Source: Minutocellus sp. GHC0000111
Taxonomy: Eukaryota
Reading direction: 5' to 3'
DNA length: 64,000 nt
Assembly: GCA_977018835.1 (NCBI GenBank)
Contig: OZ361260.1
Location: 2,604,001 to 2,668,000, forward strand
Positions 3,222-28,596 of the stretch are shown here, piece after piece. The notes under the pieces are model-generated. The model did no database searches. It saw only the letters and a list, made by a program, of their open reading frames with translations, and was not told the origin of the DNA. Numbering within the stretch: the first letter of the stretch is position 1; every line of letters starts with the position of its first letter. The position numbers were made by a program, and so were the translations under genes.

Positions 3222-5563
3222 ATGATGGGCAAGGATTCGTTATCGCAATGCCTGCGACTGGCGGCCTTTACATATGCCATCGGCGGGAGGAGATGTGGGG
3301 CGAGTTGGGTGGATCCCGATACTCCCAAGGAGGCACACGCCACCGAGGCCTACACGCACGGTGACGATCGCGAATACGAGCTGGTGTTCTCCGACGAGTT
3401 CGAGGTGGCCGGACGAAGTCTGGCCGATGGGGACGATCCCCGATGGACTGCTCTGAACAAGAACGATTGTGAGTGATGCACTCGAAGTAGAATTTTCTAG
3501 TCTTATTCGCAACCCCTTTGTTCGTTTCAATCACTTGCTTTTCATGCTTGCGTGTACATGCGCATGTTCCATGTTCCATGTTCCATCTCACCTCTCCCCT
3601 TCACTCGCCTCATTTCTTTGCAGACACCAACGAGGCGTTGCATTTCTACAGTCCCGAGAATGTCAAGACGGAGAATGGAGTGCTGAACATAACCACCATC
3701 CACAAGACCAACAAATACAAGGCCTTTAACGAAAAGACAAAGAAGTTTTACGTCGATGCCAAGCACATACAATCTGGGATGGTCCAGGGTTGGAATATGT
3801 TTTGCATAACTGGTGGTATCGTTGAATTCTCGGCCAAGCTTCCCGGTGATCCGACGGTCGGTGGTCTTTGGCCTGCCTGTGAGTATTGATTCTCTAAAGA
3901 ATGATGAAAGGAGTGCACCATTGTTTGTAATATTTCGTCAGATTGAGGGAGCACTGACCAACACATATGTATTAATATCTCTTCTAAATTTCACAGTGTG
4001 GATGCTTGGCAACCTCGCGAGAGGTACATATGTCGGGTCGTCGGATTACGTCTGGCCATTCAGCTACAACGAGTGCAGTGAAGATACGCGGAATAGCCAA
4101 AAGATCAATGCGTGCGATAGGGTCGCTCACTACAGCATGGAGCCGGGAAGAGGACGCGGTTCGCCAGAGATTGATCTTTTGGAAGCAATGATGGGCGAGC
4201 CAGGTCCCTTGCCCAATACACCGATTCAACGGCCGTATTTTTCGACGTCGTTACAGGTCGCGCCGGGGATCAAACAGAATCGCCCTCAGCTGGGACACCA
4301 GCCCAAGGCCGGCACTTGGTACGAAGGGCTGGAATACGGCAAACACGTCAATTCCAGTCTGAATCCATTCTTTTATGGGGTGACACTGATCCATGAGCCC
4401 AAGAGCTACACATACCAATCAGATGCGATATCGGCCAATACCCATATTGGGCAAACATATTTCGACGATTTCCATGACTATCGAGTGGAGTGGGAACCGC
4501 CCGAAAGAAATGGGACCGGTGGATATCTTCGGTGGTATCTGGACAAACAATTTGTTTTCGGTATTCAGGGGGAGAGCCTATCCTTGACGGGAACCGAAAT
4601 TCCGAGCGAGCCCATGTACCTTCTGATGAATACAGCAGTCGCTACTACGTGGGGATTTCCTCTGCCCTGTCCAGATGGCTGCGATTGCGATTGCTACGAA
4701 TGCGGCAACCCGGACTGTTCCTGTGGCTTCCCTCAGGGGTTCTGTTCCAATGTTCCCGCACACTTCGAGATCGAACATGTTCGAGTTTGGCAGGCCAAGA
4801 ATGAATCGAAGCATGTGCTAGGTTGTTCGACAGAAGATCGTCCTACTGCACATTTTATTGAGGGGAATAAGAAGAACTTTATGGAGAGTGGAGACAAAGA
4901 GCCATTGAAACTACTTAAAAATGGTGGCGGACTCTGTCACAAGGATAGCCAATGTGGCGGGACTGAACGGGGAAAGTGCACCCCCTCCGGCCATTCCACT
5001 TCCAAATGTGTCTGCAACGAAGAATTCACTGGGCCGATGTGTTTGGCTCATAAAGGTTTTTATGACCACCCCTACATTCCTAAACAGCAGAGCTTGAAGT
5101 GTGAGTATACGATGCTTGTTTGGAATGTAGCTCATTCTGCATTCTGAGGTCTCCATAATTTTGAATTGCACCTAGGTATGTCCTCATTCTGTCATTTTCA
5201 ATACTATCATCATCTACAGTGCAACCTCTTTCGGTCCCCTTGAGCATGGCAATCTTAGCTGCACTCATCGCTATTGGATTCGGCGCAACTCTTTTTGCGA
5301 TGGTTCGGCAAAAGAGGAAGGAAGACCGTGATTGTCAATACCGAAAGGTACAAGCATCGCCCAGTACTCGACAGGCAATGGGATCGGGAGGTGGATATCC
5401 TCCACAGGGCATCAGCGCTAATGCAGGCCGATCCGCTCAGCAAAGCTCGTACCAAAATCAGAACCAACAAACGGGCAACTCACAGACATCGCCATCGCAG
5501 ACGGCTAAGGGGAAAAACGTTAGGACATATTGCATGATTGATGGCCGGCTAATTGATGAATGA
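3222..5563 (+). CDS. KRE6/SKN1-like GH16 beta-1,6-transglycosylase (diatom TGS type); exons 3222-3468, 3624-3878, 3997-5100, 5220-5563
   Basis: WVDPDTP, LVFSDEF, SGMVQGWN.FC.TGG, GLWPA-LWMLGNLAR, catalytic PEIDLLE, an EGF-like Cys segment and a C-terminal TM. All three introns are GT-AG and phase-consistent. Start codon uncertain. Confidence 0.88.
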
Positions 5564-6947: not shown

Positions 6948-8006
6948 TGGCTTGTGGGAGAGCGGCGGCTATCGGCAAATAGCGTACCAGTAGCGTAGCA
7001 GAGTGGCGGTACCTAGGTACGGCCGCTCGTACGCAGTCGGCGCGGGAAACCGCCGTGGCATCATTATGACGAAGCAGAAACAGTCCGACTACCAGCTGTG
7101 GTCATCGTCATCTGCCCTCAGAGACTGCTCAGAGAAGAACTTTCTTGTTTGCGAAAAAAGTTATTTGAACCGACAGAGATCTACTACGCGCTCCTAAGGC
7201 CTAAGAAGTCGTACATGTACTAGCTCTAGCTAGTAGGAGCCCAGTAGTACTTCCCAGTAAAACAAGGCAACAGCCAATTGATTGATCCTGACTGGAATGC
7301 TTTATGGTACCGGTACATCGGCGGCTGGCTCTAGATCTACTACATGTAGAAAGATTCCTCCCCTTCACTGATCTTTCACTGCTTCTTCTACCAGCTAGAT
7401 CTATCGGTACCAGTGCATGTGTTTCGTCTACATCTCTCTCACACTGGGGAAGAAATGAAAATCCAATTGATACTGCAAAAGCTCTGGGATCATGCAATTC
7501 ATCTTCTTGGTGGTATCGTTGTAAGTGTTGCCATTCTCATGTATGTTCGTAGATGTCTCAAGGACCGCAAGAATGGGGCGAATAAGGGCCAACAACAGCA
7601 ACAAGGATGATCCCACGGAAGGCGCGGTGAGAGGAAGAGAAAAAGAAAACAGAACGACAAAAGAAAGAACAACCGTAGCCAAACACCAAAGCCCAAAAGG
7701 AAGGAAAAGAAGCCCAAAAGAATACCATCTTCCAGTGAAACTGATATCGATGATGCACAGAAGTACCAGGCCCTAGAGGAGGGCGGCGGGGAGAATGAAT
7801 TAAAAATGCTCGAAATGGAAGATCAAGGAACACAAGTCTAGGTCGGTCTACTCGCTAGCTACGTATGTAAAAGGGGTAAGAATTTAGAGAGACCATGGAA
7901 AGAAACATAGATCTGCATTTCGATAAACGTGTACGTGGTTTTTTTCACATAGGGCATCATTTTGTCTACATATAATTGCACTGATTTGACAACCGGTCTG
8001 TATATA

Positions 8007-8563
8007 TGTTAGTCCCAAAATGCGCACTTTCCCAGTTCGCGAACTGGGATCCCAGTTTGCGGACTGGGATTTATTTATCCCAGTTTGGAAACTGGGATCA
8101 CAGGCACAATCTCAGTTTGCAAACTGGGATCGATCGAGAAATAAATGAAGGATGATATCGCCTTTGCTTCTCCTCGCTGTTAGGGTTAGGGTACTAACCC
8201 TAACCCTAACCCTAACCCTGTGATGCACAGTGCATTTTGTATTGTAGATAGATCTACCAGTACATGTACAAAATAGTCGTTGTGCATGAGCCAACACCGG
8301 CGCGGCAGTTACCATTCTGGCACTTGCCGAGAACACCAGTTTCCAAACTGGTATTTATTATTGTTCCTGTTCGCGAACTCGTCTGGTTCCCATATTCGGA
8401 TTAGCTTATTTATCTCAGTTTACATTCTGGTAGTATCAGTGCGCAAACTGGGATCCTAGTTTGGGAACTGGGGCCCAGTGCGCAAACTGGGATAAATGAA
8501 TCTCAGTTCGCAAACTGGGATCCCAGTTCGCGAACTGGGACAGTGCGCATTTTGGGACTAACA
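8007..8563. mobile_element. Non-autonomous foldback/MITE element, ~90-bp TIRs, flanked by TATA
   Basis: TGTTAGTCCCAAAATGCGCACT at 8007 and its exact reverse complement ending at 8563, (TA)n on both sides, and about 12 internal CCCAGTT....AACTGGG palindromes. Confidence 0.9.
8180..8219. repeat. Head-to-head telomere-like repeats (TTAGGG)2-TA-C(TAACCC)4 inside the MITE
   Basis: Read directly from the sequence. Confidence 0.9.
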
Positions 8564-8656
8564 TATATATGCATATGAAATCACTCTATAATCAATTCAA
8601 GATACATCTATTTGTGCTATTAATAATACATAATGTACATGTCCATAGCCTTCACT

Positions 8657-12592: not shown

Positions 12593-13156
12593 GGTTGTTA
12601 TTGTTGTTGGAAGAATTGTAGAAAGTTATGTTGTGATGATGGCACAGCACAAGCAAGACGTTTCGGAAAGTGGTATGATGGCCTACTGATCTACGTAAGC
12701 TAAGCTACTAGTAGCCGGTAGACGTGGTGGTGGTGGTCTCTTCGCGATGAATATGTGACTGCAGGATGATCCAAGACGGATCCACATGCAGCTGTACTCG
12801 GTTGCATGGCGACGTTTGAGCGATGCAAAAGGCCGAGATGCAGTGCCGGCGTCGTGGAAGATAAAAAATATTCGTGTCCCAATATTTTGAATACCGTCGT
12901 TTCGAGACTTACTCGACTGAGATGACCCTCAAAGTCCTCGAACTGCTCGAACCTACGAGGTCCGGGACAGCAATTTCGGGGACCCGGTTTTTTGGGGTCT
13001 TTGGACTTTCCGACACGGCGGTTTGCGCGCACCTTGAAAAACACGCGGCAAAGCAAGCAAATCAAAACACATCCGTCAACAACCGACCTCCAAGCAATTA
13101 CCACAAATAGACTGGGCAACTTCTGCCGACTGGCGCTTCAAGAAGCTTCCATACTC

Positions 13157-14293
13157 ATGGATACTCCAAAGGGACACATCTTCAGTCCACCGCGTCCACC
13201 GAAACGCGCCGAGGCGACTGCATTCAGCCCCTCGCGCCATGAGAAGGAAACTTCCAACGAAACGCCGGAACATCCGCGGTATCGAGAGAACAAGGACAAC
13301 GATGACGAGGAGGACAACCAAGGGGTCCCACCGGCATCGTCAGACCTCACATCTCCTCGTGTGTTGAAACATCGACGCGAGTACAACGAAGAGGATGGCT
13401 TCGCCGCCGAACAAGCCCAAGCAAGGAAGTACTTGCATCATGACATATTGCGTGCCGACTTTCGCGGTGCCGCTACCGTTTCATCTCATTCTGATGAAGA
13501 TGATTCATTCTCAGAGATGAGCATAGCAACCGCCGACGCAAAGCCAAGCGGCGAGAGGAGAAAGCCCGTGAGCTCATTCGACCTTCCCTCCGCCACGCCC
13601 ATGGTAACAAGTCCAATGTCAGTTCATACTCAGTATGCTCTTACCCCAAGCCGCTCATGCCCGTCGTTCAGCAACCTTCAATTGTCATCCCCTACCATCT
13701 TGGAGCCCTTGCCTCCAACCGAACCAACCGAACGACAGATTGAACGAGAGGTTGAGGAACATCGGAGGCTTGCGTGCTTTTTGACGTACGGAGAAGCACC
13801 ACTACCACAAGATATAAAGAACTACAAGTCACCCACATGTAGTCAGAGGCCCGAACCAAGAAGAAAAGAGAAAGGGGTCTACCTCCCCTTCAAACAAGTT
13901 CCTGGTTGGGGTAGCGAGGTCGCGGTCACCACAGTGCTAGGCATGATCGAAGTCGATCGCCAAGTAAGAGAGGGTCGTGGTGCCTACCCAAAAGGGTGGA
14001 GAAGCAGAGAACTCGGATTGTATGATAACAAGACAATAGAATTCTCTATTGCATTATCTACTGACAAGATTGCATTAGATGCATATAAGTTGGGATATGA
14101 GGATGGGAGTAAACAACCAACTGCTCACCCTGCCCTCACTGACAATAAACTTGCCGATGCATATGGTGTGAAGCGCGGAAAGATTCGTCAGTCCCTCCAC
14201 GCTGTGTGGCTTTCTAATGATCATAAGAAGGCCAAGGAGGCAAAAAAGAATACCGGTAGAAATAGAAGAACAAAGAAGCCCACCGTGATGTAA
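13157..14293 (+). CDS. Transposon cargo ORF of unknown function (378 aa)
   Basis: Uninterrupted ORF from the first ATG, inside the TIRs and convergent with the transposase. Disordered N-half, ordered-looking C-half, basic tail. Confidence 0.65.
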   Translation: MDTPKGHIFSPPRPPKRAEATAFSPSRHEKETSNETPEHPRYRENKDNDDEEDNQGVPPASSDLTSPRVLKHRREYNEEDGFAAEQAQARKYLHHDILRADFRGAATVSSHSDEDDSFSEMSIATADAKPSGERRKPVSSFDLPSATPMVTSPMSVHTQYALTPSRSCPSFSNLQLSSPTILEPLPPTEPTERQIEREVEEHRRLACFLTYGEAPLPQDIKNYKSPTCSQRPEPRRKEKGVYLPFKQVPGWGSEVAVTTVLGMIEVDRQVREGRGAYPKGWRSRELGLYDNKTIEFSIALSTDKIALDAYKLGYEDGSKQPTAHPALTDNKLADAYGVKRGKIRQSLHAVWLSNDHKKAKEAKKNTGRNRRTKKPTVM

Positions 14294-14388
14294 ACAAACC
14301 AATGCTGCTGCATCTTACATGTAGATCTATACATAATTTGTAGACGTGTAACATTTATTTAATACATGTGTAAAGATATTAATACTAT

Positions 14389-17319
14389 CTATTTATTAGA
14401 AGGATGACGAGCTGAGGGCTCCATCCCCTTGGCCGTTTCGTTGAAGTCGATCCTAATTCCAGTGTGCAAGTTTTCGTCACCCAACCTTCCAACAAACTCA
14501 TTGCTACCACCGGCCTTAATCACCAGGCCCATTATCCTCCAGTACTGAATGAAGGCCGAAGCAATTTTGCAGTTAGGCATGCTATCGTAAACGTCCTCGG
14601 CAGTGTCCCAGATCTGGTCGGTGGAAATGACGGAGGTGCCTACCATTTTTCGTGCCCATTCCGAGTGCCGCCGGCTCATCGCGGGGAACACGCTCAAGTC
14701 AAGGACGTTGGCGTGAGGCATCTGCGGTGCCTGTGGCTGCCACGTCCAGCCTTGCTCAGCACAGAAGTTAGTAACAAATTGCGTGAAGGTTCCGTCCTCG
14801 TGAGGCCCGGCCTGGTCGCCCTGGATAATAACATGGCAATCTTCGTATTGCTTGCCCGGACCGACAAGGTTGAGAATCGCTGGGAAAATAGTCTCCTTGA
14901 ATACGAGGAGCAAAGAGCATTTCGGATCCTTTTTGGTGCCTTCGTTCGATCCAGTAACGCAACAATCAACAAGAAACGACTCTCCTTTCCGGCGAAGAGG
15001 TTCCTTTGGTGTCCCATCGGGGTTGGTATTTGGGTACCGTATTGAACCATCAGGCTGTGATACTGCTTCGTACTGAGCTCGCTCCGCTATTTTAGGAGCT
15101 TGAGCTCGTACCAGTGGCAGTTTTACAACCTCGCACCCACTCTCAAGAGAACCGTCAAAGACAGCGGCAACAAATGCAATGGCCATGACCTTGTTGATGT
15201 GGCTCCTGTGAAAGGCCGCGTAATCTCGCTTTTTCACGCCGATTTCCTCGCAAGCCTTCGCAAAAGCTCGGAGGACGAGACCCCAGAACCATTTCTCATC
15301 GTAATGCACGAGGAGAACTCGCTTCTTTCCATTCGGTAAATTGCCGTTCTCATCCCGAATGTTCCAGAAATTCCGCACGAGCTGAGCAAAGGCCAGATGC
15401 TTAGCTTTTTGAGCCTCCGACAGGCGCGGCACCAGCCGCTCCTTGTAGAAAGTGAAGGTGTCGAATGGCTTGAGCCACCGCTCAATCGTCTTGTGCGAGC
15501 ACCACAGACCAATGTCCTGCTCCAAACCACGGAACGATCGCTGAGGATTGCTGGAAAGGGCCGCAACAATGTCGTTCTGTATGTACGGCTGCCTTGCCAA
15601 GTGCTCCCGCCTCTTCAGCTCCCACAGCTGCTTGTCATCGTCGCTGATGGTGTCATACTCGGTCAGGTACGTTTTGAGCAACTCATTGTCAGCCTCCTTC
15701 GATACAGAATCATAGCAGTCTTCCTTTGCCTCTCTGCACTTATTGATTGCATACAGGCGCTTAGCAGTAAAGTACTGCTCAGCCGTCTTGTAATTGTCAA
15801 TGGTAGACTTTGGCCGAACCGACGAATCCTTGGGAGCGGGGGTGACAAATGCAAGCTCGGCCTGATCTGCTGGTATGCCCCGGGCAATGGCATTCTTCCG
15901 AGACTCGTTCTGGATGTCTCGCAGCCCATTCTTACCCTTCCCCCACGCTCTGCAGAGCTCATGAATAGTGACCCTCCCATCCGACTGAAACTTCTGCGAT
16001 GAACTGTTCCTACTTGAGTGCTGCGTCCTTCCGGTGCTCTTCAAATGCACTTCCAGAAGCAATCCCTGGGCAAAAAGCATGCTCTTGTCCTCGTCGTTCA
16101 ATCCCTTCTTGCCTTTGGTTGCTCGATTCGCCTCCTTTCGAAGATAACCATCCTTCTTCCTGTATTGCATGCCATGCAAAAGCTTTCCGACAAGAGTCTC
16201 CATCGGACTGCCATCGCTCTTTGCACGCTTATTGGCACCGGTGCTGTCAACACTATCCATCCCCGCCTGAGCAGCTACTGTCCGTTTGCGCCTGTCCTTG
16301 GCAATTGAATCGGTATTGAGGCCGAGTGGGATCGGGGTGATGGCCTTGAGAGGCACATTCTTATGCATCATGCCACCAAAAGGCTTCTCATACTGGACAT
16401 CGCAAAGAGTACCTCCACCGATACCTCTACTGCCCATAACAAATCCCTTACCCTCAGGCCGATTCATGTTGGGACTGAAGTCGGCAGACACAAGGACATA
16501 TTCCCCAGTACTGATGGCAGGTCGCATGTTATCTTCCATTCTCATTGCTTTCTTGCGTTCGGGTGGTGCATCCGTCGGCATCCTGTGCGACCGAAGATGT
16601 TCACGCATTTGTACCCTCTGCTCCAAATGACGCATCGCCTCCTTCATTTTGTTCCTTTTCTTCTCGGCATCGGCCATGGCCTTTTCATCCTTCCGCTTTT
16701 CTCGTTTCAAGGTATCCCTTAGCCCTTTCAAAGCCTCCTCTGCAGCTTTGTATTGCGCTTCGGCCTCAACCAGCAGCACATCCAAATTCTCCTCGGTCGA
16801 TCCACCAGAATTGGCGGTGCCGGTAGCAGAAACACCGACACTGGCAGGATTGCCAGATTCTTCACTGTTGCCGCTTCCATCCACCACCATGGACTCGGCG
16901 ATGCCCCCAGCTTCGATATTATCATCACCAGGACGAGCAGCGATACCAGCATTGTCCTCGACCGTCGGCTCAGGGCTGGCATCGGCGTTATTGGATGACG
17001 AATTGCGCCGAGCAATTTGAATTTGAGAAATCGGCACATCTTGTGCCGGATCAGGACCGGTCTGGCTCGGACAGCACAGCTCCTCCTCTCGGGCTTGCTC
17101 CATGATATCCTGCTGTTTCTGAAGTGAGAGGCCCGCCCATGCCCGGTTCGCTATGGTCTGGATCATCCCAGGAGACTTGCCACGAATCGCAGAGGCATCG
17201 ATGGTGCCGCTCCGATGGACAAAATAATCAAAGCATGGGATGGAGCTGCCGGACCGACGGGAGCGGCGACATGCTGGCGCATCAGCTGCGGTGGCAGCAG
17301 TAGTAACAGCCATTTGCAT
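14389..17319 (-). CDS. DD38D transposase (IS630/Tc1/mariner superfamily) with long N-terminal extension, 976 aa
   Basis: HYDEKWF, IIQGDQAGPH and QAPQMPHANVLDL.VF (38 residues between 2nd and 3rd Asp), resembling the DEKWF / QQDNA.PH / QPPNSPD.NVLDL motifs of plant and oomycete mariner-like transposases. Confidence 0.93.
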   Translation of the reverse strand: MQMAVTTAATAADAPACRRSRRSGSSIPCFDYFVHRSGTIDASAIRGKSPGMIQTIANRAWAGLSLQKQQDIMEQAREEELCCPSQTGPDPAQDVPISQIQIARRNSSSNNADASPEPTVEDNAGIAARPGDDNIEAGGIAESMVVDGSGNSEESGNPASVGVSATGTANSGGSTEENLDVLLVEAEAQYKAAEEALKGLRDTLKREKRKDEKAMADAEKKRNKMKEAMRHLEQRVQMREHLRSHRMPTDAPPERKKAMRMEDNMRPAISTGEYVLVSADFSPNMNRPEGKGFVMGSRGIGGGTLCDVQYEKPFGGMMHKNVPLKAITPIPLGLNTDSIAKDRRKRTVAAQAGMDSVDSTGANKRAKSDGSPMETLVGKLLHGMQYRKKDGYLRKEANRATKGKKGLNDEDKSMLFAQGLLLEVHLKSTGRTQHSSRNSSSQKFQSDGRVTIHELCRAWGKGKNGLRDIQNESRKNAIARGIPADQAELAFVTPAPKDSSVRPKSTIDNYKTAEQYFTAKRLYAINKCREAKEDCYDSVSKEADNELLKTYLTEYDTISDDDKQLWELKRREHLARQPYIQNDIVAALSSNPQRSFRGLEQDIGLWCSHKTIERWLKPFDTFTFYKERLVPRLSEAQKAKHLAFAQLVRNFWNIRDENGNLPNGKKRVLLVHYDEKWFWGLVLRAFAKACEEIGVKKRDYAAFHRSHINKVMAIAFVAAVFDGSLESGCEVVKLPLVRAQAPKIAERAQYEAVSQPDGSIRYPNTNPDGTPKEPLRRKGESFLVDCCVTGSNEGTKKDPKCSLLLVFKETIFPAILNLVGPGKQYEDCHVIIQGDQAGPHEDGTFTQFVTNFCAEQGWTWQPQAPQMPHANVLDLSVFPAMSRRHSEWARKMVGTSVISTDQIWDTAEDVYDSMPNCKIASAFIQYWRIMGLVIKAGGSNEFVGRLGDENLHTGIRIDFNETAKGMEPSARHPSNK

Positions 17320-17903
17320 TAATATGGTGTGTTGGATGCAGTGTTTTGTGGCAGTAGAGCAACAGTTTGCATGTCGGGTGGGTTGGAAATGAGGAAGGTT
17401 TCATTGAGTGGCGGGCGCGCCGGGCAGGTGATGATTTTTTTGGCCCGCTCGATTTTGGCGCGGGGTCACCCGGACCGCATAAGATGCGCCATTATGGGGA
17501 CCATGGAGACCGATATCGGAGCTCAAACCATATGGCTGCTTGAATCAATGCATTTGGGAGGTGGTGGTGGGGTTGGGAGGTGGAGGAGGTGACCGGTTGT
17601 CATCGGAAAAACTGGCAGAAGTCGGGAGGGGCGATGGATGGGGTGAATCGGCCAGACGCTGGCATGGGAAGATGAAATCGATATCTCCGAGTCGGTCCAA
17701 GGTCAAGGACGAACCCGTTCTGGAGACACCACGCTCATCCCTTGCGTGAAGCGGATGCCGTCGGCACTGCCGTCACCGCCATCTTGAAGACAGGACGACA
17801 GCAAATAAATGCTGCTTGCTGCAAGCGTTTGTGCTGATTTATATGAGATTTTGCCCAAAGACCCGAAAACCGGGTCCCTGAAACTGCTGTCCGCGACCTC
17901 GTA

Positions 17904-18172
17904 CTAGGACCCGGACGCACGAACAACTCGGGGAAAATCCCGGCAAAACGACTTTTCAAAGAAATGGACCTCTGAAGCTGAAATTTGGACACAGCATAGC
18001 ACATGATGCGAGAAACCTTAGAATGGCATCGCGAAATCTCAATTCCTGATATTTCTTGAGTTATCGGCACATCTTTTTTTGCCTCAATGCGTGGAAGTTA
18101 GTCCTACCAACGGAAACGCTTTGCCGAGACGACCCCCAAAAAACCCGGGTTTTTCGTGCCGGAGGGTCCTAG
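17904..18172. mobile_element. MITE (~270 bp) directly abutting the mariner
   Basis: Left TA|CTAGGACCCggacGCACGAAcAActCGGG versus right reverse complement tg|CTAGGACCCtccgGCACGAAaAAccCGGG. The right TSD reads CA instead of TA. Confidence 0.7.
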
Positions 18173-18178
18173 CAGCTA

Positions 18179-18807
18179 CGCTGGAACGAGAATGAAACTG
18201 ACGAGGTGGGATACCCTCTTTGCCCCCCGAACGGTTAGAGATACGGCACAAGTCGAACAGAGTTACCCCATGTAAATTTATGCGTTCTTTCGATTGGTCG
18301 TTGCGACAAAGTCTGGCCTGGATGGAAACGGCCGGAAAGCGGTCTTTTTGGGGAGGGTGTTTTTTCGAAATCGGCAAAGAAACGATTTTTTTCTTTTGTC
18401 GCAACGACAGGACTGTTCCTCAAGAAAACAATTCATAGAAAAGTTTTTCCAGAATTGCTCTATCTGCCTTGGTTGTTGGGGCAATTAACCTTTTCTGTTT
18501 TACTAGGCGGTTGTTAGCATCTTTTTTTCTCGCCAAGTTTCTGAAACATAAAATTTTCTCCAACCTGATAAATTTTATGTTCGCTTTCTCCGTGACGTGG
18601 CCATTTTTCACGCAGGCGAAGTTAGCGAAAAAGGGTCATGTTCAAGGCAACAAATTGCTATCACCAACTCGATTGCATCGGCTCAATATACATCAGGAGA
18701 ACCCTCTCAGAGTGCTCTATCGGTTGGTATGTCGGTGGTTTTCTGAGGTTGAGTGTGCGTGATTTTATTACTAGCACAAGACAGTGAGTTTTATTCTGTT
18801 TCCAGCG
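18179..18807. mobile_element. MITE (629 bp), TA TSD
   Basis: Left TA|CGCTGGAAcgAGAATgAAACTgAC versus right reverse complement TA|CGCTGGAAacAGAATaAAACTcAC. AT-rich non-coding interior. Confidence 0.85.
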
Positions 18808-18900
18808 TAGCTAGAGTAGGAACCAGCATTAAATTTCTCTTGCCGAATGAGCATTCTCCTCATTCTTCTCGCCACCGCCGGGAGATCTGACTTTGAAACA

Positions 18901-20143: not shown

Positions 20144-21379
20144 CTAAATGAATACGATCTGAGTTATCAACGATGACATGAGCACGAAGCACAGAGAAAG
20201 GAACGCAGCTGTTTGCTTCGCCGATGCATTCGATACCATAGGATTGGCTAACGGCAATGCTGTGGGCGGCATGGTTGGATTAGTTGATGGTGCTGGGCTC
20301 ACCGGTGATCGAGACGGAGCATTCGAATGTGATGTCGTAGGAATCCAGCTTGGTGACATACTTGGCAATGACGATTCAGGCACGCTAGGAGACGAAGAAG
20401 GTATCGCGCTGGGCGCTGCTGACGGCGATGCAGATGGGTGCGATGTAGGATGAGCAGACGGCCCTGCCGACGGAGGGAGTGATGGTATCCCGCTGGGTGC
20501 GTCAGATAGTACGCATTCGATGTTGCATGCGCAGGGGCATTTTGCAATGAGCTCTGCAACTTCGTCATCATCCTGAGGATTCATTGGAAGATAAAGCCAA
20601 AAAGAAAAAGGAAACACAACAAGTATTAGTGAAAATGCTTCAACGATACGGACTTTACAAAATCTGATAGGAAGTGAATATGTCATGTTTCGAGCTGGAC
20701 GTTGGACGGAATACGTGAATCTCATGCGTTCACTCTCGATGGCCGTACAGGTTTACAAACTTACGTAACTCATCACTCCAAACTTCGTGCAGTCAAATGA
20801 GCCAGAGCTTATTGTTTCACAACGGATGTTGAATTTTCCAATATACAAAGGATCATCGGCACAACTGTCATTAAAGCACATCTCTATACTCGAGTCCTTT
20901 TGCGTTGATGTGGTAGGAGCTACTGTCGGCGAGTTGGTTGAGATTGTGACGGGATCAGGTTCTGCTGCCGTGTCAGTACAAATTCCGCAAGCTATTGGAC
21001 ATGCCATTTTGAGTTGGTCTGTCTCGTCTGGTGTAAATCCAAGGTCAGTAAATCCATCACAATTGAGACCTGCCAGTTGAATAGTTTCGCATGTTGAACC
21101 GATCTTGGATCTGTACGAAGAATCATCAAGGCATTGTCCTCTCCTCGGTATCCCAGTACCGGTACTCAATGAATTTGGTAATCTAGCCGAGGGATCTTTG
21201 GCCGACTGCACATAGATATGATCGAGTTTCCTCTGGTCTCGATTCAATCTTTTGCGGATAAGGGATCGAGGACGACTATGATTCGTTGTCTGTTCCACGG
21301 TGATTTCTGCTGCCGCTGAGAGACGGAAGGATGCCGAGACGTACACTGCCGTCGCAATTGATACTTTTTCTGGTTTCAT
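20144..21379 (-). CDS. Secreted Cys-domain, PTS-rich protein, possibly GPI-anchored; exons 21379-20765 and 20572-20144
   Basis: Signal peptide, two C.DD..Y....G..C......C..F...G....E...L...CP.AC domains (the second split by a GT-AG intron), PS tract and hydrophobic C-terminus. Confidence 0.82.
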
Positions 21380-21546
21380 CGTTGACGCCAGAGAAATCCC
21401 AACCAACACTTCTCAAATCCTTGACCCGAGCGATGGTTGAGAGTTGCATGCGTAGTCTGAGCGGCGAATAATAGTCAGTGGTATGTACATGCGTATGCGT
21501 TCCCCTAGCTACGTAGCTAGATCTACTCATACGAGGGTCCCACGCA

Positions 21547-24255
21547 CGCAAAATTCCCAAGTTTACCCGCAGGGCAGACTTTACCCGCGGAAAGAAAAAG
21601 AGGAGAAAGAAGGAAAAAGAAGGAAAAGGGAGCGAAATGATAAAAGCATCTCTGCTCGGCGAGTCTACATGTCACTACCGGTAACTTCATGTTTACTACA
21701 TGTGTTGGTAATGAATGATTACTTATTTACGAAACATCCCAAAAGACCCCCATTGGACCTCGGCCATGCATTGTCTGGTAATTTCTGGGCATTCGCTCCC
21801 ACTCCTAGCACCTGCGCTGTCAACCTGCTTTTGGTGAGATTCATATTCATCTTGCTTGCCAACCACCGACGGACTTCAAGATCTAAAGCCTTTCCTTTTG
21901 CCACTAGTTCGGCCTCATCGATCTCGGCTGCTCTAAACACATCATCCTGATCTTTTGTGACAGCTGCATCAACCACACGCATTGCCAACTTATGTTTTGT
22001 CTTTTCATTGCGATCAAAAGCCCTGGGAAGTATTGCCAGCGGCGGAGGCATGGATTCATACGACGACCCTGACTTCAGCTTTCCAGATCGAGCCAATTCT
22101 ATTACTATTTCGCTCATGAGCGGCCATTTATTCTTCTTTTTGCCCCCAGCGCTGCTGACAGTTGACAACTGCTCCGTCGTTGGTAGCGGTGGAGGCCGAA
22201 GAGCCGTCGGTAGCGGTGGCGCTCCTCCAACCATTCTCCTTGCTATGGCAACCGGCGATACTGCAATGGCAGATATTGCGGTGCCGATAATGCCAGAACC
22301 TCCAGCGGTGCGCTGCCGCACGTTTCGGCCAGGGGATCGCGGTGGGGATGGCTCTCTTCGTCGGATGGTGCCACCGGCAGGTCTACTGGTACCAGCAACC
22401 GCCGAATCAACACCACCAGAAGCAATCAATGGCACCGATGTTCCATTTAGCGCCCTTGCATCCGATTTTTGTAGCTGAGTCTCAAGGTGACATGTTGTTC
22501 TTGCGTTGGTTGCTGCCAAAGCCTTCAAATCGGCAATCTCCTTCCGCAAATCTGACACTAAACGATTGTTTTCAGCTACCACAGTAGCAAGCTCCTCCTC
22601 AGCGGATGAATACGGTGAATTGATGGCCTTGAAATCATCTGCCACCTTCCTTGACCACCCCTTCAATTGAGACAGATCAATACCGAGCTCGTCCCCCACA
22701 TTCATCATCCGACGAACGGCAGGGCCTGCAACTCCAAGAAAAGACAGCTTCGTCGAAAAATTCATAATGTTGGTGGCCAGCACCTCCCGTACCAGCTGCC
22801 GTAGCCTCCCTCCAGCCTTGAAATCAGGCATTGTCATTGGATATAATTTGTCTGCAAACCGATCCAAAAGAGCCATGTCGTCAGGCAAAGTGCTGATGGC
22901 AATGAGCCGAGGAGGACGGTGGGACTTCCGAGGAGAGGGATGGCCAGCAAGAGACCTCATTGGCACATATTGCATCGCCCGCCGAGATAGCACGTAGTGC
23001 CTGGTGTTATCAGCAGGAGCGTGGCCTGATCGTGCCGTGAGCTCTGGATGATTCACCGACGGATCTTCGTGAAGGTGGGTAGTGCCGCCGTATCGTATGC
23101 TTCGACCAGATATGCTGTCCCGTATTGAATCCGGCAGATCATCTCGCAAGGTTTCGGTGAGGGTCTTGGAAGTCCAGGAATCGCTTCGAGCCTGGCACAT
23201 CGGTACAACAAAGGCCTGGAGAAAACCTATATTGCCAGAGGAGTTGCAGGTACGAGAGAGGCCACCATCGACGCTCCAGTGGTCACCAAGGGCATCAAAT
23301 ACACAAGTCTCCCACCGGTCATAATCTGTACAGAAGGTAGTCGGCCTGGTCGTGCCATTCTTCAAGTCCTTCCAGTCAGCAGCAGCACAATTACCGACAG
23401 GATCATATGTCATGCCCTGGTAGTTGAGATATTTCACCTCCCCGGACCGGCCATCGGCGGCATATGTCAAGTTGAGAGCAAGGCGTCGCTGGTGCTTGTC
23501 GCCGAGCTTGCTGGTTTTCAGTAGCTTGCGATTGATGGTGACCATGTCGGGAACATCGACGGCAAATGGACTGGTGCTGACACCGTCGTGTCCTTCAATA
23601 ATACCAGCATCGGGGTTGAGGCGAACGATGCCGATCTTGCCGGGTACTTCGTCGACACCAGATGTGCCACGGACGCTGTCTCTCTCCAGCTTCTTGACGA
23701 GCGCGCCCTTGGAGAGGGTGAACCAGGTCTCGTCGGTCCAGTCGACGTGGCGGCCGAACCGGTCCTTCAGGTACTCCTTGATGAGGCCGAAGCCGTTGCC
23801 GACGCCGTCAGCCTTGAGGAGCTTGTCCCGGTTGTTCATGTACCTCGGAGGGTTCGTCGACATGTACTCGGCCCAAGAGCACATAATTGATTCGATGTCG
23901 CCGGGCGATGCGACGTCTTCGGGCGTCAAGTCGTCGACAAAGGGAAGACCGATATGCTGAAGATATGCATTGAATCGGGTCTTGTACGATGATAACTCGG
24001 GTGGTGCCCTTGGGACTGCCGTGCGGCGAAGGCCGGCGGTGGCGTTCGTGGCGGCGGTAGCAGCAGTAGTAGCGGCGGCCATGGTGTCAAAAGACTTATG
24101 TTATTTATTTTGGCTCGCAGCCAAGATGCGCTTTCAGTTGGTGCTTGGCATCGCGGGGAAAATCTTGAAGTCTTCTCGCAGCAAACATGCGAGCCAAACT
24201 TTACCCAGGAATCCCCCCGAAACACCCGGGTAAAGTTCGGAAGCAAGGCGCAAAA
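21547..24255 (-). mobile_element. Crypton-like tyrosine-recombinase element bounded by CGCAAAA direct repeats
   Basis: Direct repeats at 21547-21553 and 24249-24255, subterminal 16-bp inverted repeat at 21554-21569 / 24227-24242, and a single recombinase ORF. Confidence 0.85.
21719..24082 (-). CDS. Tyrosine recombinase (Crypton/CryptonS-like), 787 aa
   Basis: Catalytic motifs in the expected order: GRSGE (R), WKDLK (K), SGRSIR.G (HxxR position), RSGH (H/W), TRHY (Y). Followed by a coiled coil and a C-terminal domain. Confidence 0.88.
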   Translation of the reverse strand: MAAATTAATAATNATAGLRRTAVPRAPPELSSYKTRFNAYLQHIGLPFVDDLTPEDVASPGDIESIMCSWAEYMSTNPPRYMNNRDKLLKADGVGNGFGLIKEYLKDRFGRHVDWTDETWFTLSKGALVKKLERDSVRGTSGVDEVPGKIGIVRLNPDAGIIEGHDGVSTSPFAVDVPDMVTINRKLLKTSKLGDKHQRRLALNLTYAADGRSGEVKYLNYQGMTYDPVGNCAAADWKDLKNGTTRPTTFCTDYDRWETCVFDALGDHWSVDGGLSRTCNSSGNIGFLQAFVVPMCQARSDSWTSKTLTETLRDDLPDSIRDSISGRSIRYGGTTHLHEDPSVNHPELTARSGHAPADNTRHYVLSRRAMQYVPMRSLAGHPSPRKSHRPPRLIAISTLPDDMALLDRFADKLYPMTMPDFKAGGRLRQLVREVLATNIMNFSTKLSFLGVAGPAVRRMMNVGDELGIDLSQLKGWSRKVADDFKAINSPYSSAEEELATVVAENNRLVSDLRKEIADLKALAATNARTTCHLETQLQKSDARALNGTSVPLIASGGVDSAVAGTSRPAGGTIRRREPSPPRSPGRNVRQRTAGGSGIIGTAISAIAVSPVAIARRMVGGAPPLPTALRPPPLPTTEQLSTVSSAGGKKKNKWPLMSEIVIELARSGKLKSGSSYESMPPPLAILPRAFDRNEKTKHKLAMRVVDAAVTKDQDDVFRAAEIDEAELVAKGKALDLEVRRWLASKMNMNLTKSRLTAQVLGVGANAQKLPDNAWPRSNGGLLGCFVNK

Positions 24256-24395
24256 AGAACGGACGGTGCGGGACCAAAAAATCAATCCTCGAGGGACCGA
24301 GAAAGCGGACCCAACCCATCAAAACAAGGCAAATCACCACAAAACAATCAATTGTACTAAATATAACCTAATTCTAAGTATCGTGTCCATCTAAA

Positions 24396-25250
24396 CTATA
24401 TTGCGACCATGTCAGGGGGATTTACGGTCCCAGGAGCAGGAATTCGCTGCCCATCACGCCGAGCCAGACCCTTTTTCGTTGGATAAAAATCCTTCCGAAT
24501 GCCCACATGAGGGGATCCACCAACACCAAGGAATTCATTACCGCCCCCAGCATCAATCACCCTCTTTGCAATCCTGTGGGCCTGAATGTATGCTGAAGCA
24601 ATCTTGGCCGACTCCAAACCATCCCAAACCTCCACAGCTGTGTCCCAAATCTCGTTCTCCTTCAGCACCCTCAATCCCTTTCTCTTCCGAGCCAAAGAGC
24701 AATGACGCCGAGACATGCAGGGGAAGACCGACAAGTCAAGTGCATTCATGTGCGGCATTTGCGGTGCCTGAGGCTTCCAATGCCATCCCTTTGCCAAACA
24801 CTATCCCTTGACGAAATCCAAGTACTTGGTCTCCTCATGAGGACCGGCATTGTCGCCTTGGAAGACCGGAGTGTACCCCTCGTATGCTGCCCCCTCACCG
24901 ACGAGCTCAACAACTGTAGGAAAAACATATTGTTCAAATAAATTCTTCAGCGGAAACTTGGGATCGTCAGGGGTACCAATATCAGTACCGGTAACAGCAC
25001 AATCGACAAGGTAGGGATCATCACGATTCCGAACGTTGGTTGTGACCTCGGTGCCATCAGCCAGAGTCTCCGTCCGATTCACAGCCTTATCGGCGATCTT
25101 GTACTGCTGGGCCCGAAAGAATCCAAGCTTGAGAGCATCACCACCGTTTTCAATCGAATCCTCGAAAGCAAAAGCAGTTACAGCGACACCCATTACCTTG
25201 TTCACATGGTTTCTGTGATAGGCTTTGAACGAAACGGGGTCAAGCTCCTT
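24396..25250 (-). pseudogene. Transposase relic (C-terminal half of a DD38D enzyme), in-frame TAG at 24801-24803, N-terminus lost
   Basis: AYHRNHVNKVM, LVDC.VTG, FQGDNAGPH and QAPQMPHMNALDLSVFP align colinearly with the 14389-17319 transposase. Confidence 0.9.
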
Positions 25251-27029
25251 ATCTGACCTCTCCTCGTCGTTCGTCATTGACGATTCTCTCTCGTCGAACT
25301 TTATTGTTCCGAACGAGGATGAAATCGCCGATCACCAACAGTGCCACGAAATTCCAATGGCACTCATCCGCCTTGAAATATTGTTTCTGAATCCCCCGCC
25401 CATTGTAAGCAGCAATACTTTCATCAAAAACAAACTCACCTGCATCTTTGCCACGTTCCTCGCTACGACTTTGCCGATGAATATAGTTTGACGACGCAAA
25501 GGGAGATGGAAAATTGCATCACGTACATGTTTGTGGCCAGCACCCTCTACGATGGCTGGAGGGCCGGCCTCCTCTTCCAATATGTCAATGACAATGACGA
25601 GGATGAACTCCGAGGTGAGATCATCGATGTTACGAAGACGCTAACCAAGGCTGTCTTGAACCAGCCAGGCATCGACAATCGGCCCTTCATCAGCAAACTC
25701 TCTCGCGCGATGAAAGCGATGAAGGTCGATGAAAAGTATCTCCCGGACGACTTGATCCGTTGGTATCAGGAAGATGATACCCGCGGCGGCATTGGCCGCA
25801 TCGACTACCGGCTTGGTAGGGTGCTGACCTACGCCGCCCGTCTCATCGTCACTGCCAATCTTTACTAATGGCCGATGATGATGGTGGCGATGATGAGCTT
25901 GGCAAGATCGCCAAACCATGATAAAGTGTTATTGAACCTATTATTTTTACCCGAAATGTCTCAGGTAAAAAAGTGATATGATAAGTTAGGAATTTTTTCG
26001 ATTTAATTTTATTAATTTCATTATACCTTTTTGTCCTCGATCCCTGAAAAACAAGCGAAAAAACCGTCCGTTCTTTTTTCGTGCGCGGCACCTCGTACAT
26101 TGATTGCGTGCGCGGCTCCGATAACGACGAGACATTGCATGCGACATATTTGGTTGTCAAGACTTACAAAAAAATGCATGTTTGAGCTGGCTGGCTCGTG
26201 TGCGTCACTTGGGGCTTGTTTCTTGGCGAAATCGCGTCACTGAAATCGCGTCACTGACCCGGTGGCTGCTTGGCTGTTTGTTTCTCTCATAACGAGAATT
26301 CGATCGATTGCTCGCCATTCGGAACTGCTGCCGCCTGCATGTGCTGACTGACTGACGGTGATGCTACAATTAATTGTAATTAATCTCCGTAGATCTAATT
26401 AGATCCCTACATGCACATGTAATCGCCGCTTCATTGACGCTGCCTCAGAGATCCTACAAATGTACATGTACACCGGTACCGGTAGATGTACCCGCGCGTC
26501 TTTGAGCCTTTTTTACATACTACATGTAGTATGTGTGTGCACATGCGCCTATAAATAGAATCTACGTAAATGTTTATCAAATTGTCATCTTGATGGCAAG
26601 ATCAATAGAGTCAAGGCAAATCCACGCATGTAGAAGATGTACATGTAGTACCGTAGATCTACGGTGGTAGTCTATATAGATCTAACATGAGGGCATCGCA
26701 TACATGTGCTAAGAGTGTCTAATGTTAGCAGAACTTGATTCTAGTAGATCCAGGTCCAGTAGATCTAGATCTGCCGGTTTGACATGTTCATCAATCTGAT
26801 AGATCTAGACGTCCACACATGCATGTGAAGTAGTGATCTACACATTGTTTTTTCCCTCATGTAGCAAGCTCATGTGCGGTGTCTAGATCTACTAGATCTA
26901 GTTCTAATTTCAGCAAGCAAATTACACATATTCTGTAGATCCTACATGTGTGTCTAATGAAAACAGCATCCCAGATGTCACCATCACCACAGCTCAGATG
27001 TAACCGATGATATCGCGTGAAGCAGTACT

Positions 27030-28596
27030 AAAGAAAATGCAACACTTGCGCCAATGGTGCTGGCTGATCCACTCGTTTGGTTTGGTTCTTCATCCATTTG
27101 CTCCTCCCCTCAACCACATTGCTTCTTGCCGAAATATCAATGACTTCGTAATTCAGATCGGTCCTCATATCGAAATTGGTTGTTCCTTCATCACTCATCA
27201 GTGCACCTTGAGTGTTGGAAGAAATCTCATCTTTCTGCGACGCCCCCCCTAACTGGGCTCAAAGTGGGATTCGATGACGGATTGCCCGATTCGAAAACAT
27301 GTCGTGATGGCAGAGCTGATGGAATATCACTGTCTCTGAGGGTGGGGGCCACAGATGGTAAAGGCGTCGATGGCGTTCTCAACTGCGCTGTTGTGGGTGA
27401 AGCACTTGGATTAGTAGATGGTGCCGGGCTCACCGGTGATCGAGATGGAGCATTAGAGTGTGATGTCGTAGGATTCAAGCTGGGCGATGTGCTTGGCGAT
27501 GTGCTGGGCGATGTGCTTGGCGATGCCGATTCATTTATGCTTGGAGACTACGAGAAAGTCACCGTTAGGTGACATGGTTGGCGAAGTCACCGCAGGTGAC
27601 ATGGTTGGTGAAGCCGATTCAGGCGCGCTAGGAGACGACGAAGGTGCGAAACTTGGCTCTGCTGACGGGGATGCCGAAGGTGATGCAGATGGGTGCGATG
27701 TAGGATGAGCAGACGGTGCTGCAGACGTTGGTTTGTGGGTTGGAGGGAGCGTTGGCATCCCGCTGGGTGCATCAGATGCTATGCAATCAATATTGCATGC
27801 ACAAGGACATTTTGCAATGAGCTCAGCAACTTCGTCGTCATCCTGAGGATTGTTCGGGTTAGGAAAACATGCTTCAAAGAGAGATTAGGCTCAAGAACAA
27901 CTACATCAACAATAATACTCCGCTCTGCCGGCACAATTTTTGAGACGTCGATCCTCTTTGAATACTTTCTGAACTCACATAATTCATTACTCCAAACTTT
28001 GTGCAGCCAAATGTTCCCGATCTCACAACCTCGCAATCAATATTGTATTTTCCAACATACAAAGGATCATCGGTGCAACTGTCATCAAAGCATGTTCCCA
28101 CACCCGAGTTCGTAAGTGTTGGTCTTGATGTTGTACTTGTAGGAGCCATCGACGGGATGTTCGTTGGTGTGGAGGTTGGGGCGACAGTCGATATTGAAAG
28201 CGATTGATTTATTTCATCGGTGCAGCGCCCGCAGGCGTTTGGACATGACATTTTGAGTTGGTCCGTCTCTTCTTGTGTGAATCCAAGGTCAGCAAACCCA
28301 TCGCAATTGAGACCTGCCTGCCGAATAGCCTTGCAAGTAAATCCAATTTTGGATCGGAACGATGCATCGTCGAGGCAAAGTTCTCTTCTTGACGCTCTGC
28401 CGGGACTAGTAGGGGAGTTTTGTACGTTGTTATGCAGTAAATTCCTTCGCTTTGCATTGGTTCGTTTGCGAAGAAGGGGCTGTGTATTCGCCGATGTAGC
28501 AGATGAGGCCGAAGCCGCGGCCAAGACAGAGGCCGAGGCAGTCGATGAATTAAAAGATATTGCAAACGCAAACGCACATGCTGCCGTGGTGGCCAT
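27030..28596 (-). pseudogene. Paralog of the 20144-21379 Cys-domain PTS protein; exon 1 28596-27979, exon 2 from 27842; frameshift and stop at ~27560 plus further shifts downstream
   Basis: Near-identical blocks (RSKIG.TC, ETDQLKM.CP, KFGVM.Y|DDDEVAELIAKCPCAC, SHSNAPSRSPVSPAPSTNP) and the same intron position. 3' boundary approximate. Confidence 0.75.

Follow-up and report, generated by a model that had tools for sequence, protein, structure and literature searches.

The 64,000-nucleotide stretch analysed here (the window: contig OZ361260.1 of Minutocellus sp. GHC0000111, positions 2,604,001 to 2,668,000, with coordinates below counted from its first letter) contains a 2.7-kb unit (2,709 bp, 21547-24255) that carries a putative tyrosine recombinase (YR) gene and lies inside the left terminal inverted repeat (TIR) of a mariner-like element. 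The unit is bounded by two direct copies of CGCAAAA on the forward strand, the left one (21547-21553) being the putative crossover core and the right one (24249-24255) the common right end of the element, as the shared contig stops at 24255 in the public runs X1, X2, X4 and X10. Both repeats and the 787-amino-acid open reading frame (ORF) between them are as the original prediction had described them. This ORF, supported by the ORF list, fold prediction and an alignment, lies on the minus strand (21719-24082, start at 24082), covers 2,364 of the 2,709 bp and is the only long one there. The element ends in direct 7-mers, with neither TIRs nor long direct repeats, and its sole inverted feature is a subterminal, asymmetrically placed and imperfect 16-bp arm, of which the left copy (21554-21569) and the inverted right copy (24227-24242) are identical at 14 of 16 positions. 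We find two TTTACCC boxes in the left subterminal region (21559-21568 and 21577-21586, within 21554-21586 on the forward strand), whereas the right subterminal region (24197-24242) holds one direct box (24197-24206) and one inverted box (24228-24237), the latter inside the inverted arm. In most copies the left repeat probably has an additional, fifth A, judging from a loose end in X5, the unaligned end of record 2 in X1 and the relative L001 described below.

The mariner-like element spans 21532-26095, or 1,862 bp without the insert, between TA target-site duplications at 21530-21531 and 26096-26097. The insertion severed the outer 15 bp of its left TIR (21532-21546, forward strand), which match the right end and also open an uninterrupted TIR at another locus; what remains (24256-26095, as delimited by sequence and depth) comprises the inner left TIR, the body and the right TIR (~26063-26095). 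When the insert and one repeat are removed, 22 of the 23 inner bases of the rebuilt left end agree with the right end, as had been claimed, and a wider comparison gives 24 of 27. The right end, previously placed at 26063-26097, is real, but that range takes in the TA, and the mariner stops at 26095. We consider it very likely that the 2.7-kb unit is a dispersed, Crypton-type DNA transposon that integrates at a short CGCAAAA(A) core, and this TIR was likely hit only because it contains the core.

The predicted recombinase and its protein family

The ORF product is predicted to adopt a tyrosine-recombinase (Cre/Flp-like) fold. The region with this fold extends over approximately residues 25-485 and is followed by a coiled coil (493-546), a disordered linker and a helical C-terminal domain (~650-780). 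In structure searches, YR folds filled ranks 1-23 of a wide search as well as the top Foldseek ranks, with Ndc10 being the best structural match. With catalytic roles assigned from motif spacing, R212, K241, R330 and Y363 are conserved in 93-94 of the 96 relatives in the alignment, and position 354 is H or W in 88 of them. The predicted fold and the short direct repeats bear out the earlier suggestion of a tyrosine-recombinase element of the Crypton kind.

The family around this product comprises 485 representative proteins (E up to 0.001), one distant member of which belongs to the diatom Seminavis robusta. Among 57 scanned members, none matched the Pfam recombinase families, and none matched GCR1_C at E 0.01. 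Word-index searches with the family alignments returned close relatives only, the nearest Atlas clusters (0.97, to be read as a lead only) consist of unnamed diatom and oomycete proteins, and the viral collection held no relative of the recombinase (0 of 15 pattern hits). Regarding the C-terminal part, residues 600-780 are filled in ~70-80% of the relatives and are well folded in the predicted model; a single-sequence model of the domain had a predicted local distance difference test score (pLDDT) of 43.5, too poor for a structure search, and the domain gave a weak Atlas lead of 0.86, under the 0.9 bar.

Compared with the majority form, the window copy differs at 12 listed ORF positions, nine of which change an amino acid, and it is missing one base near 21737, resulting in a frameshift in the final codons and altered last few residues. 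None of these changes affects the presumed catalytic residues, and some of its differences from a 786-amino-acid sequence found on other contigs recur in further members of the protein cluster. The element can therefore be called intact, as in the original prediction, only approximately. Transcription could not be shown: nine RNA runs contain the stretch, but the element-to-flank depth ratio in X5 resembles that of DNA runs.

Junctions, copy number and target site

Junctions, depth and copy number were taken from contigs of eight public runs, among 20 that contain the stretch. At the left junction, a contig of the unique left flank reaches 21576 in X1 and X3, with no differences and at single-locus depth, and at the right junction a 48-letter contig covers 24231-24278 in X2 and X4, also at single-locus depth; these contigs have 23-30 letters on their short side, just below the 31-letter bar for bridging. 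Insertion inside the mariner TIR, as first proposed, is thus found at both junctions in public contigs. An assembly artefact was considered and rejected, as both junctions recur in other runs. We also rejected a second haplotype as the source of alternative letters at 21030-21053, which match a paralogue ~7.2 kb downstream; the flank depth is therefore that of a single locus. An uninterrupted left TIR with one CGCAAAA, whose existence had been anticipated, is present on a different flank in four of four runs (X2, X4, X8 and X10). Additionally, there are two further empty TIR variants, one in X5 with a base change just before the core and one in X3 and X7 in which AA replaces GC and the core is lost.

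Element depth is 3,460-3,708 in X1, against 84.6 for the unique flank, and 4,714-4,997 in X3, against 123. Overall, the element stands at ~34-44 times single-locus depth; X2 and X4 give 34-38, a figure that rises to as much as 54 when the lowest single-locus yardstick is used. The protein cluster contains 72 members, many of them on different megabase-sized contigs. The very same 786-amino-acid sequence is encoded on 10 contigs, an indication of recent spread; the window copy has diverged slightly. The element is probably young, high-copy and of a diatom. Depth alone cannot separate genomic from episomal copies, and a high depth could reflect mainly free circles or tandem arrays with few true insertions. 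We regard this explanation as extremely improbable, since the depth fans stepwise into many flanks, many cluster members lie on different contigs, and no joint of right end to left end, the circle junction that had been expected, occurs in the contigs of four runs, which drop rare forms and cannot show absence.

The depth cascade was read at the right junction, where the listing of flanks favours those that resemble the window's path. In X2 the depth after 24255 falls from 5,621 to 2,800 (A), 1,100 (AG), 290 (AGAAC) and 160 (along the TIR), and the steps listed for X4 are 6,478, 3,200, 550 (AGA), 315 and 190. Between 2.8 and 2.9% of the right-junction depth, corresponding to one locus or approximately one in 35 copies, enters this TIR. 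The inner left TIR, which is common to filled and empty copies, has a depth of 413 and 493, against 160 and 190 for the filled junction, and the left TIRs of this mariner number about three, one filled and about two-thirds empty. With at least 35 copies against about three TIRs, two of them empty, the element cannot be specific for those TIRs. None of six distinct other right flanks tracks the TIR past seven bases. Furthermore, A is enriched directly after the core (49-50% against a background of ~25%, p 0.002 or less), so that CGCAAAA(A) is the more fitting notation for the target, whereas the later steps lie near the window background (G 39% against 28%, A ~43% against 40%). CGCAAAA occurs 10 times in the 64-kb window, and thousands of sites are therefore expected genome-wide. 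A flank that is A-rich and then reads TGC (X4 record 17) was tried as an AGAA match and dropped, as it carries a mismatch.

A metagenome scan yielded one relative among 109 pattern hits, L001, from another metagenome, with 80% identity to the window element over 1,859 coding bases. L001 spans 2,730 bp, has an 11-bp direct repeat containing GCAAAAA at its two ends, and lies a short distance upstream of a 745-codon ORF; its flanks (268 bp and 2.6 kb) contain no inverted repeat, transposase or match to the window TIRs. The repeats of the two elements have a GCAAAA core in common, and each element carries four related boxes, similar in place and orientation and none more than 60 bp from an end. 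The box pattern has 10 matches in the whole window, a count that is descriptive, as the pattern was derived from these two elements.

According to the original prediction, mariner TIRs serve as attachment sites, with the host end disabled on entry and restored by precise excision. The insertion is indeed exactly inside a TIR, an exact empty TIR exists, and there is a bacterial precedent in IS4321/IS5075 (PMC5001619, available text). However, ~97% of the junction depth departs from this TIR, half of it at the first base, and the surroundings of other copies are unrelated apart from the A-rich core, an outcome that the original prediction had itself named as refuting it; the copies outnumber this family's left TIRs about tenfold, yet about two-thirds of those TIRs are empty; and L001 lies outside any TIR, as judged by its two flanks. 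At this locus no empty allele was seen in X1 or X3, where the flank contig continues unbroken into the element, and no restored end was seen. We find the proposal very improbable, and the claim of a transposon preying on transposon ends is unsupported.

A different possibility is a longer, degenerate target, made up of the core and an AGAAC-like extension, through which a real minority of copies would favour the ends of several related families of mariners and miniature inverted-repeat transposable elements (MITEs). In X2 and X4, AGAAC recurs in one other flank (0.10-0.14 expected), followed by GGAC shifted by two bases, and the contig of this flank stops after 19 letters, as expected at a repeat or an empty allele; the sole right flank in X8 appears to match the TIR in six of seven post-core bases; and related TIR motifs are found in the neighbouring elements at 12956-17901 and 17904-18172. 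Against this, the cascade is near background past the first A, the listed flanks are biased toward the window's path while the unbiased flanks of X5 and L001 match at one and two of seven bases, and AGAAC-GGAC has no close match in the window, with five occurrences at two mismatches against 4.9 expected. We judge a longer target unlikely, and slightly less likely again that it recurs in mariner and MITE ends such that an enriched share of copies knocks out the ends of cut-and-paste transposons. If true, a longer TIR-enriched target would constitute a looser eukaryotic analogue of IS4321/IS5075.

Several observations weigh against dispersed integration at a short core by a Crypton-type element. 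Besides the two partly TIR-like flanks above, the prior chance of landing in one of about three TIR cores is 1-6%, a post hoc figure for assumed genome sizes of 30-100 Mb; this low prior weighs less because the window was selected for the hit and repeat ends are numerous in genomes. Short-contig depth is a rough measure of copy number (34-54 by yardstick), and most flanks are known as depth only. The lack of a circle joint in the contigs of four runs also belongs here. Pfam and PDB sequence searches of the ORF product returned no recombinase family match, one of them giving coiled-coil matches only. Finally, at the His position of the H-x-x-R motif the window protein has Arg, and 87 of the 96 relatives have Lys or Arg; basic residues stand in for this His in some active enzymes of this fold.

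Proposed mechanism and comparison with known elements

The element is probably a Crypton in the broad sense, with an ORF of predicted YR fold, neither reverse transcriptase nor DDE transposase, short direct repeats equal to a motif of the empty target (an arrangement also present in L001) and dispersed copies. The subterminal TTTACCC boxes are likely candidates for recombinase binding sites. In the mechanism that we consider most likely, the recombinase would bind these boxes and the element would be excised or copied as a circle carrying one core, which would then cross over with a genomic CGCAAAA(A), so that a single core flanks the integrated element on either side. The resulting repeats would represent microhomology, with no true target duplication. 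This follows the Crypton model of recombination between circle and core as stated in the available text of PMC3212892 and PMC13465315; according to the available text of PMC9977147, the same recombination was observed for CryptonF-1_cRei of Chlamydomonas. The circle model of Cryptons has little direct support, and the well-bounded family, the verified empty site, the GCAAAA core in two related elements and the candidate boxes offer a tidy substrate for it, as well as possibly a compact recombinase with a short target.

Upon comparison with described groups, the element resembles CryptonS, known from oomycetes and the diatom Phaeodactylum (Kojima & Jurka 2011, PMC3212892), in its size, likely host and 7-bp repeat, and may be a member of that group. 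In the available text of that source, CryptonS elements have a single YR ORF and belong to a 2.5-5.9 kb class, as here; CryptonS-1_PTri has 7-bp terminal direct repeats (CTGTAAG); and the group has an extra C-terminal region and no GCR1_C, to which the C-terminal region of the element here, with no GCR1_C match, may correspond. The termini differ, being TATGG (in the majority, not universally) or CTGTAAG in CryptonS and CGCAAAA(A) here, although a diatom CryptonS member listed there also lacks TATGG. At ~35-44, the copy number reaches or exceeds the maximum of the range of 1-30 listed for autonomous CryptonS, and the same text makes no mention of subterminal features such as the 16-bp inverted arms and repeated boxes observed here.

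CryptonF-1_cRei is similar in its short donor motif and near-identical dispersed target, its clean empty sites and its rise in copy number, as far as the available text of PMC9977147 describes them; its activity was observed, whereas activity is inferred here. The CryptonF-derived Ndc10/Cbf2 supplies the best structural match, while the GCR1_C domain of CryptonF is without a match here. IS4321/IS5075, of the IS110 family, likewise lie within the terminal repeat of another transposon and have a circle-type model (PMC5001619, available text), but they are bacterial, use another enzyme family and are site-specific for Tn21-like ends, in contrast to the approximately one in 35 copies found in the TIR here. 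MarCry-1_FO of Fusarium also joins a Crypton to a mariner; according to the available text of PMC3212892, it exists in multiple copies as a composite that the mariner transposase mobilises, and it retains intact 16-bp TIRs, whereas the join described here is single-copy and its TIR is broken. A search of titles and the starts of abstracts, outside of which lay most subscription papers and Repbase reports, found no paper on this family or on any TIR-specific YR element of eukaryotes.

The host mariner and neighbouring elements

The host mariner retains a C-terminal remnant of a DD38D transposase (24396-25277, minus strand), with 46% identity over 267 amino acids to residues 700-966 of the 976-amino-acid transposase at 14389-17319. 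In the window copy the remnant has an in-frame TAG at 24801-24803, and X1, X3 and X7 read another letter at 24801. Because only this C-terminal part is left, with a stop in the window copy, the mariner is non-autonomous irrespective of its broken TIR. As a side effect, the insertion probably left this single copy, which was non-autonomous already, unable to move. The mariner body has about twice the depth of the unique flank. Within the remnant, 24711-24860 corresponds to a far deeper contig in four runs (X1, X3, X5 and X7; 1,140 in X1), which probably stems from a more abundant, related mariner family. Public contigs also join across 24284-25643, 24512-25338 and 24284-24360, which suggests shorter deletion derivatives of this mariner family. 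A 120-amino-acid ORF on the plus strand of the body (25506-25868) has no significant Pfam match.

The mariner is flanked by a diverged duplicate of a host gene (20250-21145 and 27381-28389), with the two copies being ~7.2 kb apart and 69-86% identical. Further upstream, another mariner-like element, which seems to be complete, occupies 12956-17901; it is flanked by TA dinucleotides, its ends read CGAGGTC and its TIRs lack the CGCAAAA core. It encodes the 976-amino-acid DD38D transposase mentioned above (14389-17319, minus strand), which has a weak match to HTH_Tnp_Tc3_2, and a 378-amino-acid ORF on the plus strand (13157-14293) without a Pfam match. Its right end is adjoined by two MITE-like elements (17904-18172 and 18174-18812) with imperfect 29-bp TIRs, and the TIR motifs of the first of these resemble those of the interrupted mariner. 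Finally, an element at 8001-8569 has 96-bp inverted repeats of 93% identity and internal palindromes.
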